Shown in pieces: positions 12,890 to 42,140 of a stretch of DNA of 64,000 nucleotides (within the stretch, counting starts at the first letter, position 1; every line of letters starts with the position of its first letter). The position numbers and the translations under genes were made by a program. The notes beneath the pieces are model-generated. The model ran no database searches, had not been told where the DNA came from, and saw nothing but the letters and a program-made list of their open reading frames with translations. The DNA comes from Candidatus Heimdallarchaeota archaeon (lineage in GTDB: Archaea; Asgardarchaeota; Heimdallarchaeia; Heimdallarchaeales; Heimdallarchaeaceae): the NCBI GenBank assembly GCA_016839945.1, contig JAEOTE010000007.1:21959-85958 (forward strand). Reading direction: 5' to 3'.

Positions 12890-13132
12890 GTGTATAAAAT
12901 GAGCAGTATTCCAATTAATTCGTTAAGAAAGGTTATCGGGCAAAGTATAATTATTAGATTAAAAGACAATGTAAAATACAAAGGAATACTGGAAAGTTTT
13001 GATCAACATATGAATTGTCATTTAAGCAATGCAATAGAAATAATTGATAACGAAGAAGTTTCAAATTATGGTAATATTTTTGTTAGAGGAAACAACATCC
13101 TCTTAGTTCAGCTTTATGTAGATGAATTATAA
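12890..13132 (+). CDS. Sm-like (LSm) archaeal protein
   Basis: At ~75-80 aa, the Sm1 motif reads IIIRLKDNVKYKGILESFDQHMNCHL and the Sm2 motif reads NIFVRGNNILLV. Confidence 0.8.
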   Translation: MYKMSSIPINSLRKVIGQSIIIRLKDNVKYKGILESFDQHMNCHLSNAIEIIDNEEVSNYGNIFVRGNNILLVQLYVDEL

Positions 13133-13133
13133 A

Positions 13134-15245: not shown

Positions 15246-15246
15246 C

Positions 15247-22429: not shown

Positions 22430-23476
22430 GTGTCAATAGAAATCAGAAATTTATCTAAAACATTCCAAAAGAAAGGTAAAGAAACACTCGCTTTAGATAA
22501 TATAAATGTTCAAATCAAAGAAGGAGAATTTGTAGCTTTGCTAGGTCCTAACGGAGCTGGAAAAACTACTTTAACTAAAATCCTCAATACACTTATTCTT
22601 CCATCATTAGGAGAAGCATTCATTGATGGTATAAGTATAAGAGAAGACAAGAAAATACGTCAAATGGTTGGTTCTGTTTTTGGGGAAACAGGAGGAAGAA
22701 GTTTGTACTATAGATTATCAGTTTTTGATAACCTCCTGTTCTATAGCACTCTAAGTGGTATCAAAAAAGCTGAAGCAAAAAAAAGAATAAACTCATTATT
22801 ACAATATTTTGATCTAGAAGACAAGAAAAATACTCTTGTCATGAAACTTTCGACAGGTATGAAAGCTAAAGCCTTACTTATTCGAGCATTAGTACCATTT
22901 CCCAAAGTTTTACTGCTCGATGAACCCACTTTAGGTTTTGATGCAGAAAGCTCTGAAAAAGCAAAAGAGCTTCTTCTTGAATTTAACAGAGAAATAGGTA
23001 CAACAATCTTACTTACAAGTCATAATTTTACTGACATTGATGATTTAACACAACGGTTGATATTAATAGATAGAGGTCAAATAATTCAAGACTGCTCTCC
23101 TTCAGACTTTAAAAGTGCAGCTGCTCAGGAATATGTAAAATTAGTATTTTGTCTCCCATCTTTTCATTACAAGAGTTTTGAAACTTTGATGAAACATTCA
23201 GCTGGAGCTGAAATCTTGTTTTTTAGAGATAAGGATATAGATAATTTTATCTTTGAAGCTAAAATACGACCAACAAAGTATACACTGAATGAGACTATTT
23301 CTCGAATAACTGTCTTAATTCTAAGAGCAGGAGGAGAAATCTATCAAATTGCTCCACATATGCCATCTCTAAAAGAATCTTTCCTAGCTTTCCTTGCTCT
23401 TAGTAAACAGAAAAGCGTTGAACATCCTAAATCTGTAGAAGAAATGTTTTCTATACCTTTTCAGGAGGAGGAATAG
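22430..23476 (+). CDS. ABC transporter ATP-binding protein (ABC-2 exporter type) with C-terminal accessory domain; GTG start
   Basis: Walker A GPNGAGKTTL, Q-loop, signature LSTGMKAK, Walker B LLLDEPTLGFD and H-loop TSHN, plus ~110 extra C-terminal residues. Two ABC-2 permease genes follow. Confidence 0.85.
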   Translation: MSIEIRNLSKTFQKKGKETLALDNINVQIKEGEFVALLGPNGAGKTTLTKILNTLILPSLGEAFIDGISIREDKKIRQMVGSVFGETGGRSLYYRLSVFDNLLFYSTLSGIKKAEAKKRINSLLQYFDLEDKKNTLVMKLSTGMKAKALLIRALVPFPKVLLLDEPTLGFDAESSEKAKELLLEFNREIGTTILLTSHNFTDIDDLTQRLILIDRGQIIQDCSPSDFKSAAAQEYVKLVFCLPSFHYKSFETLMKHSAGAEILFFRDKDIDNFIFEAKIRPTKYTLNETISRITVLILRAGGEIYQIAPHMPSLKESFLAFLALSKQKSVEHPKSVEEMFSIPFQEEE

Positions 23477-23579
23477 AATTTATCAACAAGCTGAGGAGGT
23501 AATATCCTCCTTTAAGCCATCAACTAAGAGAAGTACTTTCATCTCAAGAATCTATAGTATATTTATTTCAAGAATAAAA

Positions 23580-24341
23580 ATGGCATTAAACTACAAAAGT
23601 AGTTTTCTCATGATAATTGCACTGAATCTGATAATGATTGTTATGTATTTTTTCTTCAGTCGTTTGAATCCAGATATAACAATTTTTGGGATTGATGCAT
23701 CTTATTTTGAATTCTGCATAATTGGTCTCTGTCTTCAGATGGTAGTTGGAACAAGTTTAGGAACGGTATGTGCTAATATTTTCAATGAAATTTCTGCAGG
23801 AACATGGTCTTCTATTTTACCGTTTTTCAATTTTTTAGAATACTCAATTGGAACCACTCTTGCAGGTGCATTCATATCGTCTTTTTCAATATTTATTGCA
23901 CTAGGATTCACATATCTTATTGCAGGATTTTTTTTTGTTATTACGTTTCAAGAAATTATGCTGATTTTTTTCCTTTTTATTTTGATTTTAATTTCTCATA
24001 TGGCTATATCCATGCTTTTCGCTGCCTTTACTATTTACTATCAAAAAAATAGTAGTCTAGTTTCAACTTTATATCATCTAACAAAGACATTCACTGGAAT
24101 TGTTTTTCCAGTTTCTTTGTTATCAGGTTTTCCTTTAGTGTTATCAAAAAGCCTTCCTCTAACATACGGATTATCAACCCTACAGTCAATCCTGTTTTCT
24201 TCTTCTGTAGATTTTAGAGGGTATTTATTTAATTGTTTAATACTTGTATCTCTTTCTATAATAATTGGTTTAATAGCCTGGTTTCTTTTTTCTTATAGCT
24301 TAAAAAACGCAAAAAAACATGGTAAGTGTGATTGGTATTGA
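23580..24341 (+). CDS. ABC-2 family transporter permease (6 TM)
   Basis: A polytopic membrane protein immediately downstream of the ABC ATPase. Confidence 0.6.
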   Translation: MALNYKSSFLMIIALNLIMIVMYFFFSRLNPDITIFGIDASYFEFCIIGLCLQMVVGTSLGTVCANIFNEISAGTWSSILPFFNFLEYSIGTTLAGAFISSFSIFIALGFTYLIAGFFFVITFQEIMLIFFLFILILISHMAISMLFAAFTIYYQKNSSLVSTLYHLTKTFTGIVFPVSLLSGFPLVLSKSLPLTYGLSTLQSILFSSSVDFRGYLFNCLILVSLSIIIGLIAWFLFSYSLKNAKKHGKCDWY

Positions 24342-25225
24342 CATTTTACAAAATATATGATGAAATAACAAAAAGATTCTCTGTTATAGATCGAACTCCA
24401 TCATTCTTTCAAGGATTAAAAGCTATTTTCATTAGAAATTTCAAAATTATTTGGCAGTATAAATTTTCAACAGTTTTAAATTTTGTAAATACACTCATTG
24501 TATCTTCTCTATTCTATTATATTGCACTGTTAATTCCAGACATGCAAATTGAGCAAGACCTATACATTGTAGATAGTGTCTCTTTTATCTTTGCTGGGTT
24601 TGTTTTAGTTAATATAGCGACAAAGATTCTAAACAAATCTCTTAACAGTATTAGCAGTGAGATGAAGCAAGGAACATTTGAAACTCTCTCTACACTCCCT
24701 TTTGGACTAAGAAAATATTTCATTTCGGAGGTAGCTTTCGAGATGATATACGGTTTTATAACTTCAATAATATTCTTTATTCCAATATTCTTGATATTTC
24801 CTATTTTTAGAAATGTATCTATTTCTTCTGCATCCTTTTTTTCACTTTTACTAGTTCTTCTTAGTATATGCTTATTCTTCTTTTCATTATCGCTTTTAGC
24901 AGCAAACTTCACAATATTAATTAAAAGAGGAAAGGAAATTTCTTTAGTTATATTAAGCATTTTGCACTTACTCAGTGGAAGTATGTTCCCACTTTCTGTT
25001 TTTCCAGGATGGTTAAAGATTATTGCCTATTTCTCACCGTTTACGTTAGGAGTTCAAGCTTTTAGATTATGCCTTTTTGGAAATGGTATTTTAACAGATA
25101 GCATAGTATGGAGTGCGGTCTTATTCTTAATTCTATCATCTATTGTTATTATTGTAGCTTTTCTCTTTACTTACAAAAGAATCTACAAAAGGATAAGAGA
25201 AACTGGTTCAATTCATGAATATTAA
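24332..25225 (+). CDS. ABC-2 family transporter permease, second subunit
   Basis: A polytopic membrane protein that overlaps the upstream permease by 10 nt. Confidence 0.6.
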   Translation: MVLTFYKIYDEITKRFSVIDRTPSFFQGLKAIFIRNFKIIWQYKFSTVLNFVNTLIVSSLFYYIALLIPDMQIEQDLYIVDSVSFIFAGFVLVNIATKILNKSLNSISSEMKQGTFETLSTLPFGLRKYFISEVAFEMIYGFITSIIFFIPIFLIFPIFRNVSISSASFFSLLLVLLSICLFFFSLSLLAANFTILIKRGKEISLVILSILHLLSGSMFPLSVFPGWLKIIAYFSPFTLGVQAFRLCLFGNGILTDSIVWSAVLFLILSSIVIIVAFLFTYKRIYKRIRETGSIHEY

Positions 25226-25890
25226 GTGTTAGTGTCTTTTCTAAGAATTCGTAGAAAGTCATTAATTGTAGCGCTTACATCATTTGATTGTGTTATTGCT
25301 CTACCTATTACAAGAATATCTACTCCTCTGTCTAGAGCTATTTCACTTGTTAGCAAATTCAAACCTCCAGCTGCAGCTACAAGAACATTAGGAAAAGAGG
25401 ATTTTGTTTTCTTGATTAACTCCCATGGATGTTCTTGTTTACCTTCTTGATCTATTCCTCTATGAAAAAGAACTATTGAAGGTTTTTTAGTGAGTTGGTT
25501 AATTAATACTTCAGGATTCTTTACATTCATCAAATCCAGAATAATATCTATGTCTCTCTTTGTTCCTTCTTCAATAGAACTTTCTATTGTTTCAATTGAA
25601 GCTAATCCACTAATTGCTACTGCGCATGCTTTTTCTTCAACAGCTATCTGCACTTCCAGTCTACCAACATCTAAAGTTTTCATATCTGCAACTACGTAAG
25701 TATCTTCTGCGTGTGATAGTAATTCCTTGAGAATGTTTATTCCGAATTTCTTTATTAGTGGTGTCCCCGCTTCTAAAAGTATTTTATCAGATTTGGGTAT
25801 TCCATTTAGTATTCGAACTAATTCATCTTTGCTAACTAAATCAAGAGCAATTTGCAAATATGGAGGATTAGCAAGTCGCATTTTATACAC
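25222..25890 (-). CDS. hxlA: 3-hexulose-6-phosphate synthase (HPS; OMP-decarboxylase/KGPDC superfamily)
   Basis: The motifs LQIALDL, EAGTPLIK, VVADMKTLD, AAAGGL and DILVIGRAITQSND align closely with bacterial and archaeal HPS (LQLALDL...EIGTPVIK...VLADMKTMD...DLVIVGGGI). Length is ~220 aa. Confidence 0.75.
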   Translation of the reverse strand: MYKMRLANPPYLQIALDLVSKDELVRILNGIPKSDKILLEAGTPLIKKFGINILKELLSHAEDTYVVADMKTLDVGRLEVQIAVEEKACAVAISGLASIETIESSIEEGTKRDIDIILDLMNVKNPEVLINQLTKKPSIVLFHRGIDQEGKQEHPWELIKKTKSSFPNVLVAAAGGLNLLTSEIALDRGVDILVIGRAITQSNDVSATINDFLRILRKDTNT

Positions 25891-27241
25891 TCATTAAACT
25901 TGTTGGAACTTCCTCTTTTAATATCCTTGGTTGAGCTATATCTTTAACATAATCTAAAATATATTCTTGATTTCGCTGATCTCCATGTATAAGGATTATA
26001 TCTTTAGCACCTGTTTCTTTCATAATTCTCTTTAATCCATCTACTGAGCTATGACCAGAATAAGGGAATTTCATTATTTGATTCTTGAGATTGATTTTCC
26101 TCTTCTTACCAGTTTCGGTTTTAACAGTAAGTTCCTTTTTACCATCATATATTTCTCTACCAGTTGTCCCAAATACTTGATATCCTGAAAAACCTAATAC
26201 ATCATCTTCATTAGATCCACATAGTTCAAGATATGTGTGAATTGGACCACCTTCAAGCATACCAGAAGTTGTAACAATAATAGAACCTTTATCACTTGAA
26301 GATATCAGCTTTCTTGCATATTGTGTCCTTTCCGAAACTTCGTAAATAGGAATGAAATTACTTTTTTCAAATGGTGAATGCAATTTTGCTTCCTTTAGTT
26401 GATCTAAAAACCTTTTTGAAACCCATTTTTCGCTCAAGTAATGTTCAGTTATCATATTCATTTTATTAATCATACCATCCATATAAATTGGAATTTCATC
26501 TAAATCATTATCTAATGCTAATGTAATCAAAATTTCTTGTGATCTACCAACAGCAAAAGATGGTAGTATCATTTTGTTTCCTGTTTCAGCTGTTTGTTTA
26601 GCTAATAGTCTTAAACCTACATCAATCTTTTCTCTTTCTGGAACATACCTGTCTCCATTAGTAGATTCTGTGATTAAAACATCAATTTTTTCGTCTGGAA
26701 CTTCGTAACCATCAAACATTGGAGTTATTCTATCATTAATATCTCCTGTATATAGTATCAGTGTCCCTTCCCAATCAATCAAGATTTGAGCAGCTCCTAA
26801 AACATGACCTGCATTAAGAAATTCCGCAGTAATCCCATCAGCAATTTTTATTTTCTGATGATAATGGGTTGTTTTTATTTTATTGTAAACAACATCTAAA
26901 TCCCTTTCTGACCAATGTCTTCTTCCTTCGATTTTTAAGTGATCTCTCCATAAAGTATAAGCTATGTCTTTTGTTGGATGAGTCATATAATAAAATCCTT
27001 TGTATCCTTCTTTTGCTAACCGGGGTACATACCCAGAATGGTCAATATGTGCATGACTCAGGAAGAAAGCGTTCAGTGATTTAGCTATTTCATCAACACC
27101 TTTTGGTGCTTTTGATAATCCTTTAGGAACAAGCTCTATACCACAGTCTAGTAAAATAGAGTGATCTTTATCACTTAGAAGAAAGCTGCTCTTTCCTACA
27201 TAATCAGTTGCCCCGAATGCTGTAATTTGTATATCATTCAT
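25883..27241 (-). CDS. Beta-CASP family metallo-beta-lactamase-fold ribonuclease (aCPSF2-like, no KH domains)
   Basis: MBL motif 2 is FLSHAHIDHSG, with later Asp/His motifs (YTGDIN; HGD near the C-terminus). The ~450-aa length is that of a beta-CASP nuclease. Confidence 0.7.
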   Translation of the reverse strand: MNDIQITAFGATDYVGKSSFLLSDKDHSILLDCGIELVPKGLSKAPKGVDEIAKSLNAFFLSHAHIDHSGYVPRLAKEGYKGFYYMTHPTKDIAYTLWRDHLKIEGRRHWSERDLDVVYNKIKTTHYHQKIKIADGITAEFLNAGHVLGAAQILIDWEGTLILYTGDINDRITPMFDGYEVPDEKIDVLITESTNGDRYVPEREKIDVGLRLLAKQTAETGNKMILPSFAVGRSQEILITLALDNDLDEIPIYMDGMINKMNMITEHYLSEKWVSKRFLDQLKEAKLHSPFEKSNFIPIYEVSERTQYARKLISSSDKGSIIVTTSGMLEGGPIHTYLELCGSNEDDVLGFSGYQVFGTTGREIYDGKKELTVKTETGKKRKINLKNQIMKFPYSGHSSVDGLKRIMKETGAKDIILIHGDQRNQEYILDYVKDIAQPRILKEEVPTSLMSV

Positions 27242-27381
27242 TGTATTATCTCCTTAGATTTTCAAAGTATCGTCTTTTATTTAGAGCATTATAACTTTGT
27301 TTTTATATTTTTTTCAATATTAGTTACTCTTAAAGTTTATTTTATGCAAGATATTTTAGAATCATTCTTGATTTGAATAAT

Positions 27382-27390
27382 CTTTTATAT
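27382..27390 (+). promoter_or_regulatory. TATA-box-like element upstream of the Vps22-like gene (likely ATG at 27419)
   Basis: ttttatatt is centred ~30 nt upstream of ATG 27419. The longer ORF-track start (27392, MLCCFYLRT) lies inside or next to this element and is probably not used. Confidence 0.35.
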
Positions 27391-27418
27391 TATGTTATGT
27401 TGTTTTTATTTGAGAACT

Positions 27419-28147
27419 ATGGATAATGAAAAGGAAAAGAAGAAACAAGAGAAAGAAAAAACAGACTTTCGAAGTTCCTTATCAGATGCATATAAATCAT
27501 TAGACCAAGAGTTGGTTAAAGAGCAAGAACTAGATAAACAGAAGAAGCAAGAGATTATAGAAGAGGGAATAGAAAAGGTTGAAAAAGAATCTGGAAAAGA
27601 TTTAATCTCTTCAAAGCTGCTAACAGGTAAAATCTTGGAGTTGAGACAAAAAGCCGGTATGTCTCAAGCTATTGGGACTGCAGGTAAAGTAAAAACTCCA
27701 ATTCTATTTAAGAAAGATGAGTTTAAACAAAAATTGACAAGAGAATTACTAATTATTGGAATAGAGGAATTAGCAGACATTGGGGGGGCAATTACAATAC
27801 CTAACTTAGTAAATTATTTTAGAGAAACAAGACCTAACTGGAAAGTTAGAACAGGTGAGATTCTAGAAGTTCTGAAAGTTATGGAAAAGAAAGAGGTAAT
27901 TCCCAAAAGAATAGATATTGGTGAAGATGATGTTTTGATTAGATTCAAACCTATTGAGATGTCAGGAGATATACAAGACATTCTAAGATTAGCAACAGGA
28001 TTACCCTATCTCACTGTAGACAAAGTTACTTCTCATCTAGGATGGCCAATAGAAAGAGCCCAAAGTACTTTAACCGTAATGATGAAAATGGATTTAACAA
28101 TACTAGAAGAATCTACAGGAAATTATTATTTCCCAGGTATTGATTAA
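27419..28147 (+). CDS. ESCRT-II subunit Vps22/EAP30 (SNF8)-like protein: charged helical N-terminus plus tandem winged-helix domains
   Basis: Several segments parallel human SNF8/EAP30 as I recall it. ELLIIGIEELADIGGAITIPNLVNYF resembles ELGVQIIEVCLALKHRNGGLITLEEL. ILEVLKVMEKKEVIPKRIDIGEDDVLIRFKPIEMSGD resembles LIRAIKKLKALGTGFGIIPVGGTYLIQSVPAELNMD. ILRLATGLPYLTVDKVTSHLGWPIERAQSTL...GNYYFPG resembles VLQLAEKNGYVTVSEIKASLKWETERARQVL...EAHYWLP. Length is ~242 aa versus ~258 for SNF8. Confidence 0.65.
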   Translation: MDNEKEKKKQEKEKTDFRSSLSDAYKSLDQELVKEQELDKQKKQEIIEEGIEKVEKESGKDLISSKLLTGKILELRQKAGMSQAIGTAGKVKTPILFKKDEFKQKLTRELLIIGIEELADIGGAITIPNLVNYFRETRPNWKVRTGEILEVLKVMEKKEVIPKRIDIGEDDVLIRFKPIEMSGDIQDILRLATGLPYLTVDKVTSHLGWPIERAQSTLTVMMKMDLTILEESTGNYYFPGID

Positions 28148-28214
28148 GATATGTAAAACTGACAAAACTTGCATTTTACGAAGAGTTTATAAACTTACAG
28201 AAGAAAATTAATAT

Positions 28215-28250
28215 GGAAAAATCTCACACTATATTTTGCGAGATTTTTCC
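28215..28250. terminator. Perfect 11-bp-stem hairpin (ggaaaaatctc / gagatttttcc, 14-nt loop) followed by C/T-rich tract, between convergent genes; candidate bidirectional terminator or small structured RNA
   Basis: Read directly: 28215-28225 is the reverse complement of 28240-28250. It lies between the stop of the Vps22-like gene (28147) and the stop of the minus-strand phosphorylase gene (28317). Confidence 0.3.
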
Positions 28251-28316
28251 CTCCCTCCCTCATTTATTTTATTTTCAAAAAAGAAGATAAAATTATGATC
28301 CTTATTTTTGGTTTTA

Positions 28317-29150
28317 CTAAATGTTTCTGTACCAGTTTTTCTTGTTCTTTTCACGTTTATCTTTATCAATTTCTGATAGAACCTTAACAGCATAATTAGC
28401 TGCTTGGATTGCTTCTCTTTCTCCTTTCACACCAAATTCATTAGTGACTCGGTTTGCATAAACAGCACATATAGCACCAGCTCTTCCTTTGAATATACTA
28501 GCTAATGTGAATATATGGGAAGCTTCCATCTCAAAATTCAAAACACCCATTTTTTGCATATCTGGAACTATCAATTCTGTTTTACTTATTTTGTAATTTC
28601 TATACCCAGGTCTTCCTTGCCCTAAATAGAAACTGGAAGAAGAAGCAGCTATCCCAATATGATAACGAAATCCAAGACTTTCGCAAGCTTCAATTAATGC
28701 TAGTACAACTTCATAGTTTGCTAAAGCGGGGTAACTTTCAGGAACATAATATTTACTTGAACCTTCCATTTTAACGGCTCCAGTATTTATAATTAAATCC
28801 CCAAGTTCTATTCCTGGTTGAATAACTCCTGTTGATCCAACTCGAATAAAGGTATCACAACCAATATTCATCAATTCAGTTAGAGCAATTTCGCAAGCAG
28901 GTGTTCCTATTCCTGTTGATGTAACACTGATGGGAACATCATGAACTTTTCCTGTATATGAGTAATACTGACGATGCCCTGCAACATCATGAAAATCATC
29001 CCATGTTTCAGCTATTCTTTTTGCTCTTTCTGGGTCACCAGGTAATAACACAGGACCTGATAGATCACCTGGTTTGCATTCTATATGATATTGTTTTCCT
29101 TCTTCAAAAACAGGTTTGTCTGCTAATGGTTTTTTATCTTCATTTCCCAT
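28317..29150 (-). CDS. Nucleoside phosphorylase, PNP/UDP family 1 (purine nucleoside / uridine phosphorylase type)
   Basis: The phosphate-site motif GDPERAKRIAE matches DeoD/Udp GDP.RA..IA. The SxGxG-type motifs SVTSTGIGTP and GSTGV and the residue-set EMEASHIF are present. Length is ~275 aa. Confidence 0.75.
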   Translation of the reverse strand: MGNEDKKPLADKPVFEEGKQYHIECKPGDLSGPVLLPGDPERAKRIAETWDDFHDVAGHRQYYSYTGKVHDVPISVTSTGIGTPACEIALTELMNIGCDTFIRVGSTGVIQPGIELGDLIINTGAVKMEGSSKYYVPESYPALANYEVVLALIEACESLGFRYHIGIAASSSSFYLGQGRPGYRNYKISKTELIVPDMQKMGVLNFEMEASHIFTLASIFKGRAGAICAVYANRVTNEFGVKGEREAIQAANYAVKVLSEIDKDKREKNKKNWYRNI

Positions 29151-29205: not shown

Positions 29206-30474
29206 TTACTCTTCCTCTCTTATTTTCTGAAGTAATTCATTAGCATAATCAAATGTCACTTTTTCTTCTTTAGTTAGTTGTTTAGCAACCTTGTCTATTT
29301 CTTCCCCTTGAGCTCCTGCATTAATTGCCATGTTTCTAGCATGTAGAGACATATGTCCTTTTTGAATCCCTTCATCGACCAAAGCTCTTAAAGCTGCTAG
29401 ATTTTGAGCTAATCCTACAGCTCCTACAATGTTAGTAAATTCTATAACATTAGAAACTTGAAGCAGTTTAAGAGAAAGCTTGTATATTGGATTCATATTA
29501 ATAGCTCCACCAACAGTTCCAATTGATAAAGGCATTTCCAGATACCCAACTAAATCCCCTTCCTCATTTTTCTCATATTTAGTTAATGCTTGATATTTAC
29601 CTGTTATAGCAGCAAATGCATGTGCTCCAGCTTCAACGGCTCTAGTATCGTTTCCAGTAGCCAATAAAACAGCTGTAACTCCATTCATGATTCCTTTATT
29701 GTGAGTTGTTGCTCTATATGGATCATTTTCAGCTAAATCGTTTGCTAGAAGAATCTTATTTACAATCTCATCTCCACCTAATTCTTCTTTATCAAAAGTT
29801 GCTTGAACTTTTACCATTCTTTTTAATCCATAGTTTGAAATGATTTTAAGAAGAGCTTTACCTCCAGTGTACTCTTCAATTTTTAGTTTGATTTCCTCAA
29901 CCATTGTATTAACTGCATTTGCACCCATAGCATCTTTGGTGTCAACTATGAGATGAAGAAGCATATAGTCACCTAATTGACCTCTGACTTGTCTAATCTC
30001 GATATCTTTTGCACCACCTTCTAAATCAGTCAGAACCTTATTTGTAGAATTAGCTAAATCCAGCAGGTAGTATTGGTTTTCTTTAATTATTTTTTTTGCT
30101 TCTTCAAAATCCTTAATCCCTAAAATTTGCATTTGGCCAATAGTATAAGAACCAGTGTACTCTGAAGTGAAACCTCCTTTTTTTCTTGCTATTTTTGCTG
30201 CATGACTTGCTGCAGCAACGATAGAGGTTTCTTCAATAGCCATAGGAATTAAATGCTCTTTCCCATTTACTATGAAGTTAGTAGCAATTCCCAAAGGTAA
30301 AGAAACTCTACCTACAACATTTTCTATCATATATCCTAGAATTTCTTCTCCCACTTCTTCTCCTTTTAGAATTGAAACATCATCTTCAGATAAGCTAAAA
30401 ATCTTCGACAAGATTTTTCTTCGTTTATCTATTGTTTTATCATAAAACTTGGATAATCTGGAACTAAATCCCAT
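29206..30474 (-). CDS. hmgA: Class I HMG-CoA reductase (archaeal, soluble)
   Basis: Catalytic-domain motifs include ENVVGRVSLPLGIATNFIVNG, DAMGANAVNT and GTVGG. Length is ~420 aa with no membrane domain. Confidence 0.9.
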   Translation of the reverse strand: MGFSSRLSKFYDKTIDKRRKILSKIFSLSEDDVSILKGEEVGEEILGYMIENVVGRVSLPLGIATNFIVNGKEHLIPMAIEETSIVAAASHAAKIARKKGGFTSEYTGSYTIGQMQILGIKDFEEAKKIIKENQYYLLDLANSTNKVLTDLEGGAKDIEIRQVRGQLGDYMLLHLIVDTKDAMGANAVNTMVEEIKLKIEEYTGGKALLKIISNYGLKRMVKVQATFDKEELGGDEIVNKILLANDLAENDPYRATTHNKGIMNGVTAVLLATGNDTRAVEAGAHAFAAITGKYQALTKYEKNEEGDLVGYLEMPLSIGTVGGAINMNPIYKLSLKLLQVSNVIEFTNIVGAVGLAQNLAALRALVDEGIQKGHMSLHARNMAINAGAQGEEIDKVAKQLTKEEKVTFDYANELLQKIREEE

Positions 30475-30518
30475 ATGTATAGAAAAGAATGGTAGTTAAA
30501 AAATGTTTATTTTTAGAA

Positions 30519-30737
30519 TTATAATTCTTCTAGAACTTGGATTTTTTGATCCTTGAATTGACGCATAATTCTAGTAACATAACCTGCTATCAGATTACGC
30601 ATTTTTTTTGACATAGGAGAACAGACTTCTTCAACTACATGTTTGTTGTTCTGAAAATCAGTATTTAACTGATCATGAAAATCACGGACAATTTGTTTTG
30701 AGATACGTTTTATTTGGCTAGTACGTATGTTACCCAT
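30519..30737 (-). CDS. rps17e: Ribosomal protein eS17
   Basis: MGNIRTSQIKRISKQIVRDF... is the characteristic eS17 N-terminus. Length is 72 aa. Confidence 0.85.
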   Translation of the reverse strand: MGNIRTSQIKRISKQIVRDFHDQLNTDFQNNKHVVEEVCSPMSKKMRNLIAGYVTRIMRQFKDQKIQVLEEL

Positions 30738-31576: not shown

Positions 31577-33385
31577 TTACTCAACTGATTCCAATTTCTT
31601 CAAATCCCATCCGCTTGTTGTACGAAAAACAAAAGTTGGGTGAGATATCTTATCAATTTGTAGAAGCAGTTCAACATCAAATTGTTTCTTGAAGTGTGAA
31701 GATGCTTTTACAAACTTGTATTTTCCATCAAGAATATTGATCACTGTACCGATTGGGGATTTCTCAGCTAGTTCAGCTGATTCATCTATTATCCCGATTC
31801 TTGCCATCATCCCCCAGTTCATTACTCTTATTAATGGATGAGTTTTATTTTTGCTTTTTACTTCCTCGATACCTAAGCAGTACATTGATGATTTTTGTTC
31901 CTCAGAAAGCTTCTCAAAAACAATGTAATCTGATGTAAGAAATTTCTGCAATTCTTTGGGACTTGTTCGCAAATTAAGATTTAATTGATAACTGGATTTT
32001 ATATCTGGAAAACGTTTGATCAGTTTGTTGTACAATGTTTGTATAGTCGATTTAGCATGCGATAAACCAGCAAAATAAAGCCAACTAAGATATTCGAGAC
32101 TTGCTATACACATTCCTTTATTCTTATTGTTTAATGATAAGTAGAAAGTTTGCTCAAACATTAATCCAGATTTATTCAAGTCATCCAATTGCATATATTT
32201 GAAACCAAGTTGATTGATAAATTCAATGTTATCATAATCATAATCCTTGGCTCTCTCTTCTGCCTTGTTGCCACCTAGAATAACTGTTAGTAAAACTAGA
32301 GCTTGTACAACATTAGCAACATCAGTTCGTTGATATTGATTACATTCATCTTCAAAAGCAGGAGTGAAGTAAGAGTTTAACCGTTGAATTTGTCCAGACA
32401 ACAAAAGAAGTATCATTCTAAGGAAATGTACATTTATTCCAAGTTCTTCAACAGCTCTTGAACTTTGAAACAGAATCATAAGGAGTTTGTCCATGTACAC
32501 TCTCGCTAAATCAAGTTTCTTATTTTCGATTAGACATATACATGCTAAATATTGTAATCGAGCTAACATTAGTAGAGATTCATTGTAAATAGGATGGTCT
32601 TCTATTTTGTCAACTACTAACTTCCAGTCAACTAAACTGTCTGTTATCTCTAATACTCTAGATAAGAGTTCTTCTTCTAATTCTCCATATTTTCCTTGAA
32701 TGAAATCGTCTTCAAGTCTATTAAGATCTCTCTGTATCTCAACCAATAGTTCGCTTAGTTGTAAAGATTCTATTGAAAAAACCTCTCCTTCTTTTAAGTC
32801 ACTTTGAGTTTGTTTAACCAATTTTTCTTCATATTCTGAACGAATTACGGATATTGCAGAGTCTAATATCTTTCTAATCCTTTTGACAGGATCATATCTA
32901 TTTGTGCTCTCGACTGAATATTGTATTTCAGCGGTAAATAATTTTGATTCAAGTTCTTTTAAAAAAGAATTAACTGATGGATTAGTATTTTCTTCAATTA
33001 CATATCTTACAAAAGCACTATCTATGAGTGTTGGAATATTGATTAGTTCAGCAGTTTCAAGCAATTTTAAATCACTACTTACAACAGTTGCATTTAATTT
33101 GTCTGCTAAGAAAATAACAGCTAAATCAGGTTTTTGAGGTAAATTTGTAGTTTTATCATGTAATTTTCTTAGAAATTTTTGAAATTCTGATTCAATAATC
33201 CCCCCAACTTTAACGTGAGGTAAAATTGCTCTTTGAACATAATATCTTAATTCATTTTTAATTTGAACAGGAATGAATACTTCTATTTTGAGTTTCTTTA
33301 AAACCTGAGCAAAAGTACCATATGAATCTGGTCGAGACTGAAATCCACTTATGAAAAAATTAGTATCTACAACATATACTGCCAT
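31577..33385 (-). CDS. PIN-domain protein with long alpha-helical (possibly TPR-like) C-terminal region, function unknown
   Basis: The N-terminal ~130 aa read MAVYVVDTNFFISGF...VVSSDLKLLE, PIN-like with acidic residues at the conserved positions (D7, E, D). The remaining ~470 aa show no recognisable NTPase motifs and are predicted helical. Confidence 0.45.
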   Translation of the reverse strand: MAVYVVDTNFFISGFQSRPDSYGTFAQVLKKLKIEVFIPVQIKNELRYYVQRAILPHVKVGGIIESEFQKFLRKLHDKTTNLPQKPDLAVIFLADKLNATVVSSDLKLLETAELINIPTLIDSAFVRYVIEENTNPSVNSFLKELESKLFTAEIQYSVESTNRYDPVKRIRKILDSAISVIRSEYEEKLVKQTQSDLKEGEVFSIESLQLSELLVEIQRDLNRLEDDFIQGKYGELEEELLSRVLEITDSLVDWKLVVDKIEDHPIYNESLLMLARLQYLACICLIENKKLDLARVYMDKLLMILFQSSRAVEELGINVHFLRMILLLLSGQIQRLNSYFTPAFEDECNQYQRTDVANVVQALVLLTVILGGNKAEERAKDYDYDNIEFINQLGFKYMQLDDLNKSGLMFEQTFYLSLNNKNKGMCIASLEYLSWLYFAGLSHAKSTIQTLYNKLIKRFPDIKSSYQLNLNLRTSPKELQKFLTSDYIVFEKLSEEQKSSMYCLGIEEVKSKNKTHPLIRVMNWGMMARIGIIDESAELAEKSPIGTVINILDGKYKFVKASSHFKKQFDVELLLQIDKISHPTFVFRTTSGWDLKKLESVE

Positions 33386-34451: not shown

Positions 34452-35537
34452 ATGACGAAAAAAGTACGCGTAGCAATAGCAGGATTAGGAAATTGCGCAT
34501 CTGCTCTAATACAAGGTTTAGAATATTATAAAAATGCAGATCCTGAATCTGATTATATCCCAGGTATAATGCATGTAAAATTTGGTGATTATCACATTTC
34601 AGATGTAGAAATTGTTGCAGCTTTTGAAGTAAGTACACTTAAGATTGGAAAAGATATTTCAGAAGCAATTTGGGAAGAACCGAACTGCTGCAATAAGTTT
34701 TCAGATGTTCCATACAAGGAAGTAGAAGTATTACCAGGTCCTATTGAAGATGGTGTAGCACCTCATATGAAGGAATCTTTTCATTGTTATGATGAATCCA
34801 AAGTGCAAGCTGTAGACGTTACTGATGTTTTAAGAAAAACAGAAACTGATGTTTTAATCAATTTCTTACCTGTAGGTAGTGAAACAGCAACAAGAAGATA
34901 TGCTCAAGCTTGTTTAGATGCAGGAGTTGCCCTCGCAAATGGCATACCAGCATTTATTGCATCTGATCCTGAATGGGGTCAGAAATTTACTGATAAGAAT
35001 ATACCCATTGCTGGTGATGATATAAAATCTCAATTAGGAGCAACAATTTTACATAGAGTGTTAGTAGGATTAGCACATGATCGAGGTATTAAACTTGATG
35101 AAACTTTTCAGCTCAATATAGGTGGAAATACTGACTTTGAGAACATGAAAAAAGAGTATAGATTAACAACTAAAAGAATCTCAAAAACACAAGCAGTAAC
35201 AAGTATGATACCTTATGAAGTGCCTACAAGAATTGGACCATCAGATTATGTTCCATTTTTGGAGGATGAGAAGATTTGTTACTTATGGCTAAAAGGTAAG
35301 AATTTCGGGGAACAACCACTAACTGTTCAACTGAAACTTTCTGTTCAGGATTCACCTAACAGTGCTGGTGTTATGATTGATGTTGTACGTTCTTTAAAAA
35401 TTGCTAAGGATAGAGGTATAGGTGGTCCTTTAATTGGTGTTTCTAGCTATTTCTTCAAACACCCTCCCAAACAAATACAAGATTCTGAAGCATTCCAACT
35501 AGTCGAGAAATTCATTAAAGGAGAAATAACAAACTGA
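34452..35537 (+). CDS. myo-inositol-1-phosphate synthase (archaeal/bacterial short type), copy 1
   Basis: The N-terminal NAD-binding motif reads VRVAIAGLGNCASALIQG. Length of ~360 aa is typical of archaeal MIPS. Copy 2 follows immediately in tandem. Confidence 0.75.
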   Translation: MTKKVRVAIAGLGNCASALIQGLEYYKNADPESDYIPGIMHVKFGDYHISDVEIVAAFEVSTLKIGKDISEAIWEEPNCCNKFSDVPYKEVEVLPGPIEDGVAPHMKESFHCYDESKVQAVDVTDVLRKTETDVLINFLPVGSETATRRYAQACLDAGVALANGIPAFIASDPEWGQKFTDKNIPIAGDDIKSQLGATILHRVLVGLAHDRGIKLDETFQLNIGGNTDFENMKKEYRLTTKRISKTQAVTSMIPYEVPTRIGPSDYVPFLEDEKICYLWLKGKNFGEQPLTVQLKLSVQDSPNSAGVMIDVVRSLKIAKDRGIGGPLIGVSSYFFKHPPKQIQDSEAFQLVEKFIKGEITN

Positions 35538-35547
35538 GGTGAAATGA

Positions 35548-36618
35548 ATGGAAAACGATACTATTAAGGTTGCAATTGCTGGAGTTGGTAATGTTGCTTC
35601 AGGTTTAATTCAAGGAATAATCTACATGAGAGAGTATGAGGAAGAAAAAGAGAATCTACTTCACCCAAAAATCGGAAGTTACGAAACTAAGAACATTCAA
35701 ATTGTTGCTGCATTTGATGTTGATTCAAGTAAAGTAAACAAAGATTTGTCAGAAGCGATTTTCGTTCCAATAAACAGTACTCCACAATTTATTCAAGTTG
35801 AACATTTAGGTGTTGAAGTAGTTAAGGGACCAACTAAAGATGGGCTTTCTAAACATCTAAGACAAGTCATTCAAGTTGCTGAAACTGAAGAGGCAAACAT
35901 TGTAGAAATTTTACAAAAAACAGGAACAGAGATTCTTATCTGTGCCATTCCTACTGGTGCTGAAGAAGCAGTTAAGACTTATGCTCAAGCAGCTATAGAT
36001 GCTGAGGTTTCCTTTATTAACTGTACTCCAACAAGAATCGCTAGCAATCCTGCTTGGGCTAGAAAATTCAAACAAGCTAACGTTTGCGTAATCGGTGATG
36101 ATTTACAGTCTCTAGCAGGAGGAACAGTTCTTCATAAAGGATTTCTAGATGTTCTAAAAGAGCAAGGTGTTAAAATAAAAGACACATATCAATTAGATGT
36201 CTCTGGTGGTCTTGAAACTCTTAATACTCTTGATGATGACAGAAAACAATATAAAAGAAATATAAAGGAGCGTTCAATCCAAGAATCTGTAATAAACGAG
36301 ATCAATATTGCTAGTGGAACCTCTGATTATCTAGAGTTTCTAGGAAATAGAAGAATAGGGCACTTTTGGATTTTTGGTGAAGGATTTATGGGTATGCCAG
36401 TTAAAATTGATATAAGATTAGAAACACTTGATGGTCCAAATGCAGCTGGGACACTTATAGATGTCATAAGAGCCACAAAAATTGCTATTAACAGAGCTGG
36501 AAATGGTCCAATAAGCTCTATCTGTGCTTATGGATTTAAAGCTCCTCCAGTTACAACAGACAGACATACCTCACATCAATGGCTTAATGAATATTTAGAA
36601 GGAAAAAGAACAGAATAA
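35548..36618 (+). CDS. myo-inositol-1-phosphate synthase paralog, copy 2
   Basis: IKVAIAGVGNVASGLIQG and co-linear similarity to copy 1 throughout (VAAFDV..SKVNKDLSEAI vs VAAFEV..LKIGKDISEAI). The gap to copy 1 is 10 nt. Confidence 0.7.
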   Translation: MENDTIKVAIAGVGNVASGLIQGIIYMREYEEEKENLLHPKIGSYETKNIQIVAAFDVDSSKVNKDLSEAIFVPINSTPQFIQVEHLGVEVVKGPTKDGLSKHLRQVIQVAETEEANIVEILQKTGTEILICAIPTGAEEAVKTYAQAAIDAEVSFINCTPTRIASNPAWARKFKQANVCVIGDDLQSLAGGTVLHKGFLDVLKEQGVKIKDTYQLDVSGGLETLNTLDDDRKQYKRNIKERSIQESVINEINIASGTSDYLEFLGNRRIGHFWIFGEGFMGMPVKIDIRLETLDGPNAAGTLIDVIRATKIAINRAGNGPISSICAYGFKAPPVTTDRHTSHQWLNEYLEGKRTE

Positions 36619-37667: not shown

Positions 37668-39161
37668 CTAGAAAAGTGATTCTCCCATAGATGAACAGAA
37701 TTCTAGAAAATTTACATTTAATACTAATAGAAGAATTATCATAAACAAAACAAGAATCAAAGATATATGAACTCCTGGTTCAACTGTTTTTTGTACATAT
37801 GGTTTCTCGAATGTTTCAAAGAACAAGGATTTGAGAACTCTTATCAAATAGATACTTGAAAAAGCTAACACTAATACATAAACAACAGATATGAGAATAA
37901 GATAATCACTAATAATCTTAAAGAGAAGAATTTCTGTTAAGAAACCTATTATTACAGGAAAAACAAACAGAAGTATAAAACTTGTTGAAACTATTATAGA
38001 AAGAACAATACGCATTTTTCCTATCCCTTTCAAGTCCTCAATGTTTTCTGAATCAAAACATTTTGACAAATAACTTACAGCAATTGAAGAAAATGAAAAT
38101 AATAGAACATATCCTATAAGATTCAATGAAAGATATTGCATAACTTGAAGTTGTTTTGGGTAGGACAGATATCCAGATAATGAGAAAGCTAGGATAAGAA
38201 AAATAGAACCAATATGAATCTGACTAATATAATGTAAGAGCTTCTTCAAATTTGGAACTGTAATTGAAGAAAACACACCCCATAAAGCTAATATGAAACC
38301 AATGATAATGAACAGCCAAATTAAGAGATTGATAATAGATGAATCTCTATTATTTACCGCTATTTTTACCATAAATGAGATACTAATCCCTTTTTGAATA
38401 ATGGTAAGAATGCTTGAGCTAGACATGTTATTATCATCCGTAAAACCTAATGACCAAAAGTGGAATGGTGGGAAACCTAATTGAATTAGAAGAGAAATTA
38501 CTATCAGGATTATACTCAAGTATTCCCAAATATTAAGGAATGCAGCCTCTAAAATGACTTCGAAACCATTCACAGCAATGAAATGACACGAAATTCCAAA
38601 GAAAAGCAATGTTAGTGATAACCCATTTAAGATTGTATAAGGTGAGATTATTTTTGTAAGCTTGTCTTCAGTAGCGTTCTGTAGATACCTGAAATAAATA
38701 TTGAGACCAGCATATAGAAGGATAAAACCAAAAAATATAACAAGCCAAGAATTTGAGGAGAAAATAAAGAATGAACTGGATTGCAAAACTAGAAGAGAAA
38801 TAAATGCAAAATAACTTCTTTCCGAATTTTTACTAGTTTCTACAATAGTTAGAAATTCAAGTAATATGATTCCAACACTAATTGCTAAGTAAATACCAGA
38901 GGAAAATGGATTAATTTCGAATACTTGTATTTCTGGAATACCATTTTCGAACGGAGTAAGAATGTATGAAAACAGAACAACAGATATGATAGAACATAAT
39001 ATAGAACAATAACCAAAAATGAGTCTCATTCGTCCCTGAAACACAACAAATTTCTTAGCTATTTTATGTGATAATAATCCTGTAGTCAGAATAAGGATTA
39101 TCCCTAAGAGTAGTAGCTCTAGATGCAAGTAGTTAAAGAAAATTGAAGAAATATAACTCAT
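37668..39161 (-). CDS. Complex-I NuoN / MrpD-like proton-conducting membrane transporter subunit (PF00361-like)
   Basis: About 14 TM helices. GFPPFHFW parallels the H-x-WLPDA region. KKLLHYISQIHIGSIFL parallels the K.LLAYSSI.H.G signature of NuoL/M/N-MrpA/D proteins. The protein is strongly divergent. Confidence 0.45.
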   Translation of the reverse strand: MSYISSIFFNYLHLELLLLGIILILTTGLLSHKIAKKFVVFQGRMRLIFGYCSILCSIISVVLFSYILTPFENGIPEIQVFEINPFSSGIYLAISVGIILLEFLTIVETSKNSERSYFAFISLLVLQSSSFFIFSSNSWLVIFFGFILLYAGLNIYFRYLQNATEDKLTKIISPYTILNGLSLTLLFFGISCHFIAVNGFEVILEAAFLNIWEYLSIILIVISLLIQLGFPPFHFWSLGFTDDNNMSSSSILTIIQKGISISFMVKIAVNNRDSSIINLLIWLFIIIGFILALWGVFSSITVPNLKKLLHYISQIHIGSIFLILAFSLSGYLSYPKQLQVMQYLSLNLIGYVLLFSFSSIAVSYLSKCFDSENIEDLKGIGKMRIVLSIIVSTSFILLFVFPVIIGFLTEILLFKIISDYLILISVVYVLVLAFSSIYLIRVLKSLFFETFEKPYVQKTVEPGVHISLILVLFMIILLLVLNVNFLEFCSSMGESLF

Positions 39162-39180
39162 CTTAATACACCTCTTCTAT

Positions 39181-41136
39181 TCATAAAATACTTCCTCCTA
39201 CATAGTATAACACAAATGTCAACAATATTACGAAAATGAATAGAGCTGCTAATTGAAGTTGTTTTCTTAACGAAGCTTGCTCAAGCTTAAGGAAAAATTT
39301 AGAAGTATTTACAAAAATTTTCTTGATAAATGGTCTTATATAATCAGTTAATGAAATTGAGATAGCAGAAATAATTTTAGAGATAAATTTGATAATATTT
39401 TTTGCAGCAATTTGATACAAAAATCCTGCAATGATGATATCATATGTCCAAACTGAGAGAGGTTTTATTATATTTAACCAAAACCAACTAGATGCATAGA
39501 ATATAAAATCAAAGTAATATATGGATCTAATTGTTTTTCTTGCAGGCGCAAAGAAATTAAGTATTTTCTTATTCAGATCTGCTAAGAATTTTGAACTTAT
39601 AAAATACAAAAGCAAGATTACAAAGTAAGAAACTATAAGTGGGATTACTGAGATAAGATAATCGCTAGCTAGCAAAATTATAACTGGAGCTATTGAATTT
39701 TGCAAGAAGAAAGTTGGGAAAAATGCACTTGTTAAGATGAGTATTAAAACAAGGGAGATAATTGTAAACTTATGATTAGAGCTTAATACCATTTCGTTCC
39801 TTTTCTTCCAAATCCTTCTTAAGAAAATCAAACAAATGAAGAAAACTATAACAAGTGTTAGAAGCCCTCCAGACAATAATCCTATTGGTGCTAAAAGATT
39901 TGTTGAATAGAAGGAATATGTAAGAGTGACTAAAACACTATTGAATGGAATTACGCCTAACAAAGGAAGCAGTGCTAGAACAATCGCTGAAAAAATAATC
40001 AATAAGCTGGAAATACCAGATTTAGCATTTTCTAATTTTTTATTTTCATTGATTTTTACTTGGATTGAAATAAGTATTAAGAGGATTCCAAAAACAAAAG
40101 GAAGTAGTGTCAATTGGTGAAGCGCAGCTGAATATAGTCCAGATCCTATAGAAAAGAAGATCAATCCTATAAATGAAGATTGTAGGAGATATATAATGTC
40201 ATATCCTTCGTTCAGAAAAACAGCTACAATTACTGAAAAAAGAGCTATGGCTAAACCAAACCAAATAATGAAGTTTCTAATAATATACATAATGTGAATA
40301 AATGGAGTACCGAAGAGAGTGAATAGCGAAAAGAGCATATAGATATTTAGTATTAGGAATAGCCATTCGTTATTCCCTTTACAAACTTCAGATTTCCAGT
40401 TATGAAATGGGAAAAGGGAGCATTTTATTATTATTCCTATAAGAAGCAAAATACAGAGGTTTCTAAAATAAGGATTTGAAAGTATAAATTTGAATATAAT
40501 GTCGTTATTGATTACTGAGAAATCAAAGGAATGAGACCTTCGAATTAATAATGCAATAGAGATGAATATAAAGATGTTTCCAAGAATGAAAGAAAAAACT
40601 AATGACTTGATTTTGTTCTTCTTCTGTTTTTGATCAAAAGTAGTTGAGAAATTAACGAAATCAATTATTAAAACATCTAGAACAAGATAAATTGCTAGAA
40701 ATTGTAGAAAATTAGGAGAAAAAATGAGAAGAATACCTATTGTAAAAATAAGAAATACTCTCTCCAAATGTTTTATCTCAAGTTTAGGATTGTTCAAAGC
40801 TAAGTAATTTAAAATAAAAGGGAGAGCTAAGAAAATTGTTGCATAAAAAACAACTTGAATCAAATCGATTCTAAAGCCAAACTCAATATTATATTGCTGA
40901 GATTCATAAAACTGAAAGATTGACAAAGGTTCTATTGTTGTCGTAAAATATGTATAAAGAAAGTATGAGACAAAGCTGATAGTAATTATTAGACTACAAA
41001 TCATATATGAATACAGGTAAAATTTCTTAAGCTTTTCACCATCAAAAAAGAATTTCAATAAAGTTATTCTTAAGATTGGGAATAACAAGAATAGACAAAT
41101 TTGGATTGTTAAAAGCAAGGCACTAATACTTATCAT
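39181..41136 (-). CDS. Complex-I NuoL / MrpA-like proton-conducting membrane transporter subunit, divergent
   Basis: At 651 aa and ~18 TM, LFPFHNWKSE (H-x-W) and YLLQSSFIGLIFFSIG (AYSSI.H.G-like) are present. Confidence 0.4.
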   Translation of the reverse strand: MISISALLLTIQICLFLLFPILRITLLKFFFDGEKLKKFYLYSYMICSLIITISFVSYFLYTYFTTTIEPLSIFQFYESQQYNIEFGFRIDLIQVVFYATIFLALPFILNYLALNNPKLEIKHLERVFLIFTIGILLIFSPNFLQFLAIYLVLDVLIIDFVNFSTTFDQKQKKNKIKSLVFSFILGNIFIFISIALLIRRSHSFDFSVINNDIIFKFILSNPYFRNLCILLLIGIIIKCSLFPFHNWKSEVCKGNNEWLFLILNIYMLFSLFTLFGTPFIHIMYIIRNFIIWFGLAIALFSVIVAVFLNEGYDIIYLLQSSFIGLIFFSIGSGLYSAALHQLTLLPFVFGILLILISIQVKINENKKLENAKSGISSLLIIFSAIVLALLPLLGVIPFNSVLVTLTYSFYSTNLLAPIGLLSGGLLTLVIVFFICLIFLRRIWKKRNEMVLSSNHKFTIISLVLILILTSAFFPTFFLQNSIAPVIILLASDYLISVIPLIVSYFVILLLYFISSKFLADLNKKILNFFAPARKTIRSIYYFDFIFYASSWFWLNIIKPLSVWTYDIIIAGFLYQIAAKNIIKFISKIISAISISLTDYIRPFIKKIFVNTSKFFLKLEQASLRKQLQLAALFIFVILLTFVLYYVGGSIL

Positions 41137-41401
41137 CTGTCATTCCTTCTTTTTTTAATGAGAATAATAGTTGATCTCTAAAAACAAAAATGAATATTAT
41201 CGAAAAAGCAACTAAACCAAGAATCACTAGAATAAAACTTTCAGCAGTAAAATTGACGCTAGAAATAATGAGTATTCCTGAAAGAAATATCAATAAAAAT
41301 CCGAATATTAACCTGAATTTTGTTTTAAAAAATAGCATTAGTAAAATGCCTAAAACAAAACAAATGAATGATATTGCAATTACATAATTCAGGAATACCA
41401 A
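41123..41401 (-). CDS. Small 3-TM membrane protein (possibly MrpC/NuoK-like)
   Basis: 92 aa with three hydrophobic helices, overlapping both neighbours within the operon. No firm motif was found. Confidence 0.25.
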   Translation of the reverse strand: MVFLNYVIAISFICFVLGILLMLFFKTKFRLIFGFLLIFLSGILIISSVNFTAESFILVILGLVAFSIIFIFVFRDQLLFSLKKEGMTDDKY

Positions 41402-42084: not shown

Positions 42085-42140
42085 TTCAAACCATAAAAGT
42101 ATAAAGAAAAGAAGGATAAAAACCTTTAGGAATCTTGTTA

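Follow-up and report, generated by a model that had tools for sequence, protein, structure and literature searches.

The 64-kb stretch of Heimdallarchaeota DNA analyzed here (the window; 32% G+C) carries the gene for a functional but divergent paralog of the ESCRT-II protein Vps22, which coexists with a canonical Vps22 in genomes of the same family. We call this paralog EAP30-B, a name coined in this analysis for the stand-alone Vps22-like copy. Its gene occupies positions 27419 to 28147 of the forward strand (242 codons plus stop) and is supported by the open reading frame, a Pfam EAP30 match, a structure model and the pattern of substitution. The dN/dS ratio against close orthologs is about 0.07, indicating strong purifying selection. 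EAP30-B is already catalogued, through NCBI-named orthologs, asCOG cog.002769 and a supplementary table (Makarova 2024, PMC10936438). Its existence is thus no new finding, but it has gone undiscussed and without biochemical study. No new fold or system is involved, and what EAP30-B exposes is a concrete, testable gap in the Asgard ESCRT-II model.

Family membership and predicted fold

The protein matches the Pfam EAP30 profile (PF04157) with an E-value of 1.6e-7 and a score of 31.8 bits, above the gathering cut-off of 26.8, over profile positions 17-216 of 219. This confirms the Vps22/EAP30-like identity that the earlier note had proposed from the sequence. Searched as a single sequence against solved structures, EAP30-B retrieves human SNF8 (1.7e-3) and yeast Vps22 (6.5e-3); a profile built from 29 orthologs (A1) aligns residues 30-241 with human SNF8 chain 2zme_A at E=5e-8 and reaches yeast Vps22 at 7e-4. 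In the profile alignment, the W-x-x-E-R-A motif (W209...A214) falls on human WETERA and the C-terminal YYFP on human HYWLP, so that both motifs singled out earlier, W-x-x-ERA and the terminal aromatic one, have their human counterparts. The Pfam scan of the 242 residues returned no domain besides EAP30, no HTH family above threshold and no RNA-binding signature. We regard it as almost certain that EAP30-B is a genuine paralog within the EAP30 family.

An AlphaFold2 model shows a predicted core of tandem winged helices: residues 100-240 are confident (pLDDT 80-88) and form two winged-helix units. For residues 1-99 it gives helix or disorder at low confidence, including predicted helices at 17-57 and 62-78 with pLDDT below 60; residues 48-100 align with the helical region of canonical Vps22. 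The model thus agrees with the architecture first read from the sequence, a helical N-terminus followed by two winged helices, with the N-terminal part modeled at low confidence. When the model was submitted to Foldseek, the top five PDB matches were SNF8, Vps22 and VPS36 chains (human and yeast Vps22, human VPS36), followed by the tandem winged helices of SelB bound to SECIS RNA.

EAP30-B shares its domain order with eukaryotic Vps22/SNF8/EAP30 (PDB 3CUQ, 2ZME chain A, 1U5T chain A), which provides both its best sequence match among solved structures and its best Foldseek match. The similarity is nevertheless weak, and a rough tree places eukaryotic Vps22 with the canonical Asgard Vps22 instead. 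Resemblance to eukaryotic Vps36/EAP45 is lower than to Vps22: EAP30-B lacks a GLUE/PH or zinc-finger domain, and the tree does not group the two.

A search of 5.8 billion proteins identified 42 clusters of EAP30-B orthologs at 56-94% identity. PF04157 is present in 41 of them, the exception being a short fragment. Named sources are Heimdallarchaeaceae or Heimdallarchaeota MAGs, and orthologs occur in the complete genomes of Ca. Heimdallarchaeum endolithica (P0039) and Ca. H. aukensis (P0040). NCBI labels these orthologs "EAP30/Vps36 family vacuolar-sorting protein". An exhaustive profile search over 1.84 billion cluster representatives returned 172 proteins at E<=1e-3. Two further profile searches gave only 6 and 11 matches and supplied four proteins (P0050, P0053, P0056 and P0228) for context; the first of these low yields was probably due to swamping by lysine-rich words, and N-terminal trimming helped little. 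One ortholog (P0048) lies on a contig of 1.4 kb (L008) whose flanks contain Ns and are uninformative. A metagenome scan with a Hodarchaeales-type protein (P0099) gave no match, and the genomic context of the Hodarchaeales group is taken from the Makarova table alone.

Two Vps22-like genes in the same genomes

A single Vps22/36-like gene per Asgard genome has been stated (Hatano 2022, PMC9192718). The canonical representative from Heimdall AB_125, HeimAB125_14050, adjoins Vps25 (HeimAB125_14040) and UEV-Vps28 (HeimAB125_14070) in the same study, and its sequence, given in the Supplementary Data (PMC9192718), served as our canonical query. Scanning GTDB genomes with it produced 29 loci, including CP084167.1, CP084166.1 and JABLTJ010000016.1.

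In the complete H. endolithica genome (CP084167.1), a beta-CASP gene adjoins the EAP30-B ortholog P0039 at 3.08-3.10 Mb, and the canonical Vps22 (Pfam EAP30, E=2.3e-22) is located at 1.70-1.72 Mb, about 1.4 Mb away. According to Pfam, the latter belongs to a Ub-ESCRT cluster comprising a UEV-Vps23core-Vps28 fusion, a small protein, Vps22, a ThiF-type E1, ubiquitin, Vps25, Vps4 and two Snf7 proteins, and this cluster is conserved in other members of the family. H. aukensis likewise holds both copies (stand-alone P0040 and a canonical locus, L031, on CP084166.1), as does assembly JABLTJ01 (stand-alone locus L003 and a canonical gene on JABLTJ010000016.1). The earlier note had called for a search for a canonical ESCRT cluster and a second EAP30 gene; carried out on the genomes of these relatives, it found both.

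Published gene tables point the same way. The "Asgard_loci" sheet lists two cog.002769 "EAP30/Vps22 family" genes for AB_125 (Makarova 2024 supplement, PMC10936438), one within the ESCRT cluster and the other stand-alone. Around the latter the sheet shows three ABC-transporter genes, hexulose-phosphate synthase, a YSH1 beta-CASP gene and Udp (PMC10936438), and this gene order is exactly that of the window. Since relatives carry both copies and the AB_125 order is the same, the window gene is the stand-alone paralog. The initial suggestion of an independently expressed, possibly paralogous EAP30 protein is thereby upheld, the canonical copy of the family genomes and AB_125 residing in the Ub-ESCRT cluster. 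The text of the same study says of ESCRT-II only that the "number of paralogs" varies (Makarova 2024, PMC10936438).

The two copies have much in common. Both are about 240 amino acids long, belong to the same Pfam family and to asCOG cog.002769, and combine two winged helices with an N-terminal helical region, which in EAP30-B is predicted at low confidence; shared motifs are RP in the first winged helix, W..ER and YFPG. Alignment of EAP30-B with the canonical family by hhalign gives a probability of 99.8% at 25% identity over residues 48-242, the N-terminal 47 residues remaining unaligned. However, EAP30-B is only 26% identical to HeimAB125_14050 (24-26% between copies generally), falls in a separate clade and lacks the MGLRxIE start of the canonical proteins. 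Its gene, moreover, adjoins that of a beta-CASP RNase and lies at a distance from Vps25, Vps28, Vps4 and Snf7.

Profile comparisons place the canonical copy closer to the eukaryotic proteins. The canonical Asgard profile (A5) matches SNF8 at 6.6e-33, yeast Vps22 at 1.3e-18 and VPS36 at 1.3e-15, whereas the EAP30-B family profile (A1), whose SNF8 and yeast Vps22 E-values are given above, has no VPS36 match at E<=1; scores against SNF8 are 117 and 36 bits, respectively. A profile of the wider clade containing EAP30-B, hereafter the B clade (A3), gives 2.2e-16, 1.2e-12 and 3e-4 for the same three proteins. A neighbour-joining analysis of 55 sequences (200 bootstrap replicates) gave a rough, distance-based tree without maximum likelihood. 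The B clade is recovered at 81%, eukaryotic Vps22 is monophyletic at 97%, and the canonical Asgard Vps22 stands with eukaryotic Vps22 and human Vps36 on the opposite side of a 74% split from the B clade. This split argues against EAP30-B having been copied recently from the Heimdall canonical gene, and equally against its being a Vps36-like lineage. An ancestral relationship of EAP30-B to Vps36 was considered and rejected, since eukaryotic Vps36 sides with the canonical Asgard Vps22 in sequence similarity and in the tree alike. Judged by protein identity, EAP30-B evolves faster than canonical Vps22: between H. endolithica and JABLTJ01, the canonical copies are 77.5% identical and the EAP30-B copies 52.3%.

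Gene neighbourhood and possible role

Upstream of EAP30-B, on the reverse strand, lies a gene for a KH-less beta-CASP RNase of 452 amino acids (25883 to 27241; Pfam Lactamase_B_6, Beta-Casp and RMMBL), separated from it by a divergent intergenic region of 177 bp (27242 to 27418). Downstream, a uridine phosphorylase-type gene (Pfam PNP_UDP_1; 28317-29150, reverse strand) converges on it. Pfam thus recovers the two flanks named in the earlier note, a beta-CASP RNase and a nucleoside phosphorylase. The RNase has an aCPSF1/CPSF73-like catalytic core: it covers positions 175-613 of 631 in the aCPSF1 model TIGR03675, scoring below the equivalog cut-off, and among solved structures it comes closest to archaeal aCPSF1 (chain 2ycb_A, 4e-53) and human CPSF73 (1.7e-42). 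It corresponds to the catalytic part of aCPSF1, CPSF73 and IntS11.

The large ORFs of the window that were scanned with Pfam encode replication and repair proteins, transporters and metabolic enzymes; six others, without a Pfam match, are membrane proteins. Among most large ORFs, these scans detected no Snf7, Vps4, Vps25, Vps28, UEV/E2, E1 or ubiquitin. Five stretches (22430-25225, 29206-30737, 34452-36618, 43897-47519 and 56900-58354) were assigned only via their syntenic counterparts at two orthologous loci (L001 and L003). When all ten proteins encoded in the Ub-ESCRT cluster of H. endolithica were compared with the window by tblastn, EAP30-B alone was retrieved, at 24% identity to the canonical Vps22. 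Scans and tblastn both support the view that the gene lies outside any ESCRT/ubiquitin cluster. This stand-alone position is real; it is not peculiar to one genome but the conserved state of the whole paralog clade.

Closer relatives (L043-L045) share the entire local synteny of the window. The head-to-head arrangement of the beta-CASP and EAP30-B genes recurs at five orthologous loci (L001 in H. endolithica, L003 in JABLTJ01, L006, L009 and L010), with gaps of 146-255 bp and no ESCRT gene within 10 kb. Among these loci are those of more distant members of the B clade, represented by P0056, P0050 and P0228 (31%, 35% and 24% identical to the window protein), each with a beta-CASP gene of 460-492 amino acids head-to-head at 146-225 bp. 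Four deep Heimdallarchaeia lineages, with EAP30 proteins 24-35% identical, thus keep a divergent KH-less beta-CASP neighbour. The neighbour itself is 43-75% identical across lineages, and 43-50% among the distant ones, where most other neighbouring genes differ. Both flanks described for the window are present; of the two, only the RNase is conserved as a neighbour, not the phosphorylase. P0055, a close relative of P0228, heads a cluster that includes a protein of Ca. Kariarchaeum pelagius.

Other listed arrangements differ. Heimdall LC_2 has a single, stand-alone EAP30 gene with a beta-CASP gene 3.7 kb away (Makarova 2024 supplement, PMC10936438); it is of the EAP30-B type, and no Vps25 or Vps4 is listed for this MAG, which may be incomplete (PMC10936438). 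A Wukongarchaeota-type relative (P0067/P0275) is stand-alone too, without a beta-CASP neighbour. In Heimdall LC_3 (Hodarchaeota), known to us from the gene table alone, a KH-less beta-CASP gene on the reverse strand stands head-to-head with an EAP30 gene on the forward strand, as in the window; unlike the window and the Heimdallarchaeaceae, where these genes lie elsewhere, co-directional Vps20, Vps24, Vps4 and Vps25 follow directly (PMC10936438). A second LC_3 EAP30 gene adjoins RpoK and S17e (Makarova 2024 supplement, PMC10936438). This single gene table suggests that the LC_3 layout, with the beta-CASP gene head-to-head with EAP30 and then ESCRT-III, Vps4 and Vps25, is ancestral. In the Heimdallarchaeaceae, the ESCRT-III-Vps4-Vps25 module, now found with the canonical Vps22, ESCRT-I and ubiquitin genes, would have left EAP30-B behind by the nuclease gene.

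EAP30-B most likely serves as an alternative or partner ESCRT-II scaffold. Through its N-terminal helices and first winged helix it would associate with another subunit of the EAP30 fold (a second copy of itself or the canonical Vps22), much as Vps22 pairs with Vps36 in eukaryotes. Vps25, or a different partner feeding ESCRT-III and Vps4, would bind to the second winged helix, and expression of the gene would be controlled separately from the main ESCRT cluster. A scaffold role, possibly as partner of the canonical Vps22, is favoured by the LC_3 layout taken as the ancestral arrangement. Against such a partnership, the canonical Vps22 of AB_125 forms homodimers by itself (Hatano 2022, PMC9192718), so that no partner subunit is required. 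The explanation as a whole, a functional divergent Vps22 paralog that may work as an ESCRT-II-type scaffold, seems to us slightly favoured.

Whether EAP30-B acts with the ESCRT machinery, or at least retains an ESCRT-II-type scaffold, is by itself an even call. On one side, the beta-CASP-adjacent EAP30 of LC_3 heads the Vps20-Vps24-Vps4-Vps25 array, and EAP30-B keeps the canonical motifs. On the other, the window holds no ESCRT gene, LC_2 lists neither Vps25 nor Vps4, evolution is faster and similarity to eukaryotic Vps22 weaker, and the N-terminal 47 residues are unalignable and modeled with low confidence.

We may also hypothesize that EAP30-B works outside ESCRT with the KH-less beta-CASP RNase, for instance by serving, with its two winged helices, as an adaptor to bind RNA or bring in the nuclease. 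Such an activity would parallel, in archaea, the functions that ESCRT-II/EAP30 has away from endosomes. Three observations speak for such a role: the head-to-head pair persists in four deep lineages among which nearly every other neighbour differs, the next-best structural matches are the RNA-bound winged helices of SelB, and LC_2 is listed with an EAP30-B type but without Vps25 or Vps4 (PMC10936438). However, divergent adjacency implies shared regulation at most, not a physical or functional link; the LC_2 genes are 3.7 kb apart, and the Wukongarchaeota-type relative has no such neighbour. The LC_3 pair is moreover contiguous with ESCRT-III, Vps4 and Vps25, so that the adjacency may simply be inherited synteny, and Pfam reveals no RNA-binding signature. 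On balance, we consider an RNA-linked role unlikely.

Even less probable is a winged-helix DNA-binding regulator or generic scaffold that has kept the fold and lost ESCRT-II function: the full-length match, helical region included, is to the EAP30 family only, no Pfam HTH family exceeds its threshold, and Vps22-specific motifs are retained. Finally, the 64 kb seen of this genome and the published single Vps22/36-like gene per Asgard genome (Hatano 2022, PMC9192718) would accommodate the one canonical Vps22 displaced from its cluster, but we judge this extremely improbable, given that three same-family assemblies and AB_125 carry both genes, that the window is syntenic with the stand-alone locus of relatives rather than with their cluster, and that identity to the canonical type is 24-26%, in a different clade.

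Heimdallarchaeia are the archaeal group nearest to eukaryotes. In the current model of Asgard ESCRT-II, a single Vps22-like gene encodes a homodimer that replaces the eukaryotic Vps22-Vps36 pair, and the duplication producing Vps36 took place during eukaryogenesis (Hatano 2022, PMC9192718). A conserved, selected second EAP30-fold protein across Heimdallarchaeia is missing from that model (PMC9192718). Perhaps Heimdallarchaeia use two EAP30-fold subunits, EAP30-B and canonical Vps22, in a heteromeric ESCRT-II, or EAP30-B couples the scaffold to the CPSF73-like nuclease; we offer this as a speculation with a minor chance of being correct. If it were true, an ESCRT-II with two paralogs, or else an RNA-linked 'EAP' function, would have existed before eukaryogenesis, against the one-gene homodimer model. 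The question is open to direct test through binding of EAP30-B to canonical Vps22, Vps25, ESCRT-III or the CPSF73-like nuclease. Should EAP30-B prove an ordinary alternative subunit, the gains would be a corrected gene inventory and start codons for its family.

Promoter-like blocks and the downstream hairpin

The reading frame ending at 28147 on the forward strand has two candidate starts, ATG 27392 (251 amino acids) and ATG 27419 (242 amino acids). The first lies inside a block of 22 nt, TTGAATAATCTTTTATATTATG (27373 to 27394, forward strand), kept in six orthologous loci with only three variable positions in the upstream alignment, although the proteins are 55-94% identical and the surrounding intergenic DNA has diverged; in JABLTJ01 (L003), a stop codon follows right after the same ATG. 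Because the block is conserved as DNA amid diverged sequence and the L003 stop interrupts the frame, it more plausibly represents a promoter element than part of the coding sequence, and ATG 27419 is the likely start, giving the coordinates 27419-28147. A TATA-like box, TTTTATAT, lies within the block at 27383-27390 (forward strand), 29-36 nt 5' of this ATG. Position and sequence are consistent with a BRE/TATA promoter at 27373-27394; the TATA-like promoter of its own credited to the gene by the earlier note is therefore conserved in orthologs, its function being a probable one.

The converging EAP30-B and phosphorylase genes are 169 bp apart. A terminator scan found one hairpin, against 0.4 expected in shuffles, within this gap at 28215 to 28250 on the forward strand (-15.3 kcal/mol, z=-6.5). 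The hairpin earlier taken for a terminator thus exists; its interpretation changes, as a promoter-like block of BRE/TATA shape, TTGCATTTTACGAAGAGTTTATAAA (28169-28193), stands 5' of it, which argues that it is probably not simply the terminator of EAP30-B. A second block, CCCTCCCTCCCTCA (28249-28262), stands on its 3' side. Both blocks are invariant in five loci and each is unique within the window. At gathering thresholds, Rfam gave nothing in the window, the downstream element having only sub-threshold chance matches, and the element was not found downstream of the H. endolithica ortholog. A consensus fold based on MAFFT was blurred by a register shift of 1 nt. In L045 and L003 the stem has an altogether different sequence, but base pairing is preserved in all of these loci, with folding z-scores from -5.4 to -7.0. 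The region has the appearance of a gene for a small RNA of some 55-60 nt under a promoter of its own, and the hairpin would more likely form the body of this separate conserved element.

Start codon and downstream element of EAP30-B

An in-frame ATG at 27392 (stretch 27392-27418), upstream of the start of the stand-alone Vps22-like gene EAP30-B (27419-28147, +), falls within a conserved TATA-like block. Many database orthologs are annotated from this upstream ATG (P0001-P0004, P0008, P0013 and P0021); annotation from the equivalent of ATG 27392 adds about nine spurious residues to EAP30-B orthologs.

The gap between EAP30-B and the convergent phosphorylase gene holds a conserved element (28169-28275, +) that looks like a small RNA and is also present in the orthologous loci of relatives: L003 (about 10740-10845), L043, L044 and L045. 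It comprises a BRE/TATA-like block (28169-28193, +), invariant among the compared loci, a hairpin (28215-28250, +) whose pairing is always kept while its stem sequence varies between relatives, the block CCCTCCCTCCCTCA (28249-28262, +), likewise invariant among these loci, and a T-rich tail. Each block occurs once per locus, and a comparison with Rfam gave no family match to the element.

Other EAP30 genes and modules in Asgard archaea

In L042 (3627-5499), RpoK (Rpb6) is encoded close to the Wukongarchaeota-type EAP30-like gene, and both RpoK and S17e lie near the second EAP30 gene of the Heimdall genome LC_3, on contig n_00031 (Makarova 2024 table, PMC10936438). In the window, S17e (30519-30737) is found 2.4 kb downstream of EAP30-B. 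The proximity of RpoK and S17e to EAP30 genes may be a leftover of an older synteny.

The genome that carries L003, JABLTJ01, also has a canonical locus (L039, JABLTJ010000016.1), where the genes for canonical Vps22, UEV-Vps28, E1 and ubiquitin are grouped. In the 7.5 kb that flank Vps22 on the opposite side, Vps25, Vps4 and Snf7 were not found, in contrast to AB_125 and the Heimdallarchaeum genomes; the Ub-ESCRT cluster of this MAG may be split.

EAP30-like tandem winged-helix modules also occur in larger proteins. A profile search of cluster representatives matched Thorarchaeota proteins of about 770 aa (P0087, P0088, P0091 and others) with a C-terminal module at residues about 630-770; the module is likewise C-terminal in Promethearchaeota proteins of 386-555 aa.

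Other genes of the window

Six consecutive ORFs (37668-43759, -) gave no Pfam match at E<=1e-3. Four of the products (497, 651, 92 and 231 aa) are polytopic membrane proteins of high hydrophobicity, and the other two (264 and 275 aa) are either secreted or anchored; the syntenic gene in L003 matches Proton_antipo_M. Two large ORFs (50577-53768, +, 1063 aa; 58410-61295, -, 961 aa) also have no Pfam match. A 602-aa protein (31577-33385, -; counterpart in L003, 14130-15935) shows a weak N-terminal PIN-domain signal and nothing else, and received no family assignment; in relatives it is conserved beside a KaiC-like ATPase.

Genes for replication, repair and RNA functions are densely packed in the region 1905-16140; their order is MCM, Hel308-like helicase, GINS, CTP synthase, NurA-HerA, Sm-like protein, DUF460 protein and RIO2 kinase. 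The MCM helicase gene (1905-5549, +; 1214 aa in total) is interrupted by an intein bearing a LAGLIDADG homing-endonuclease domain.
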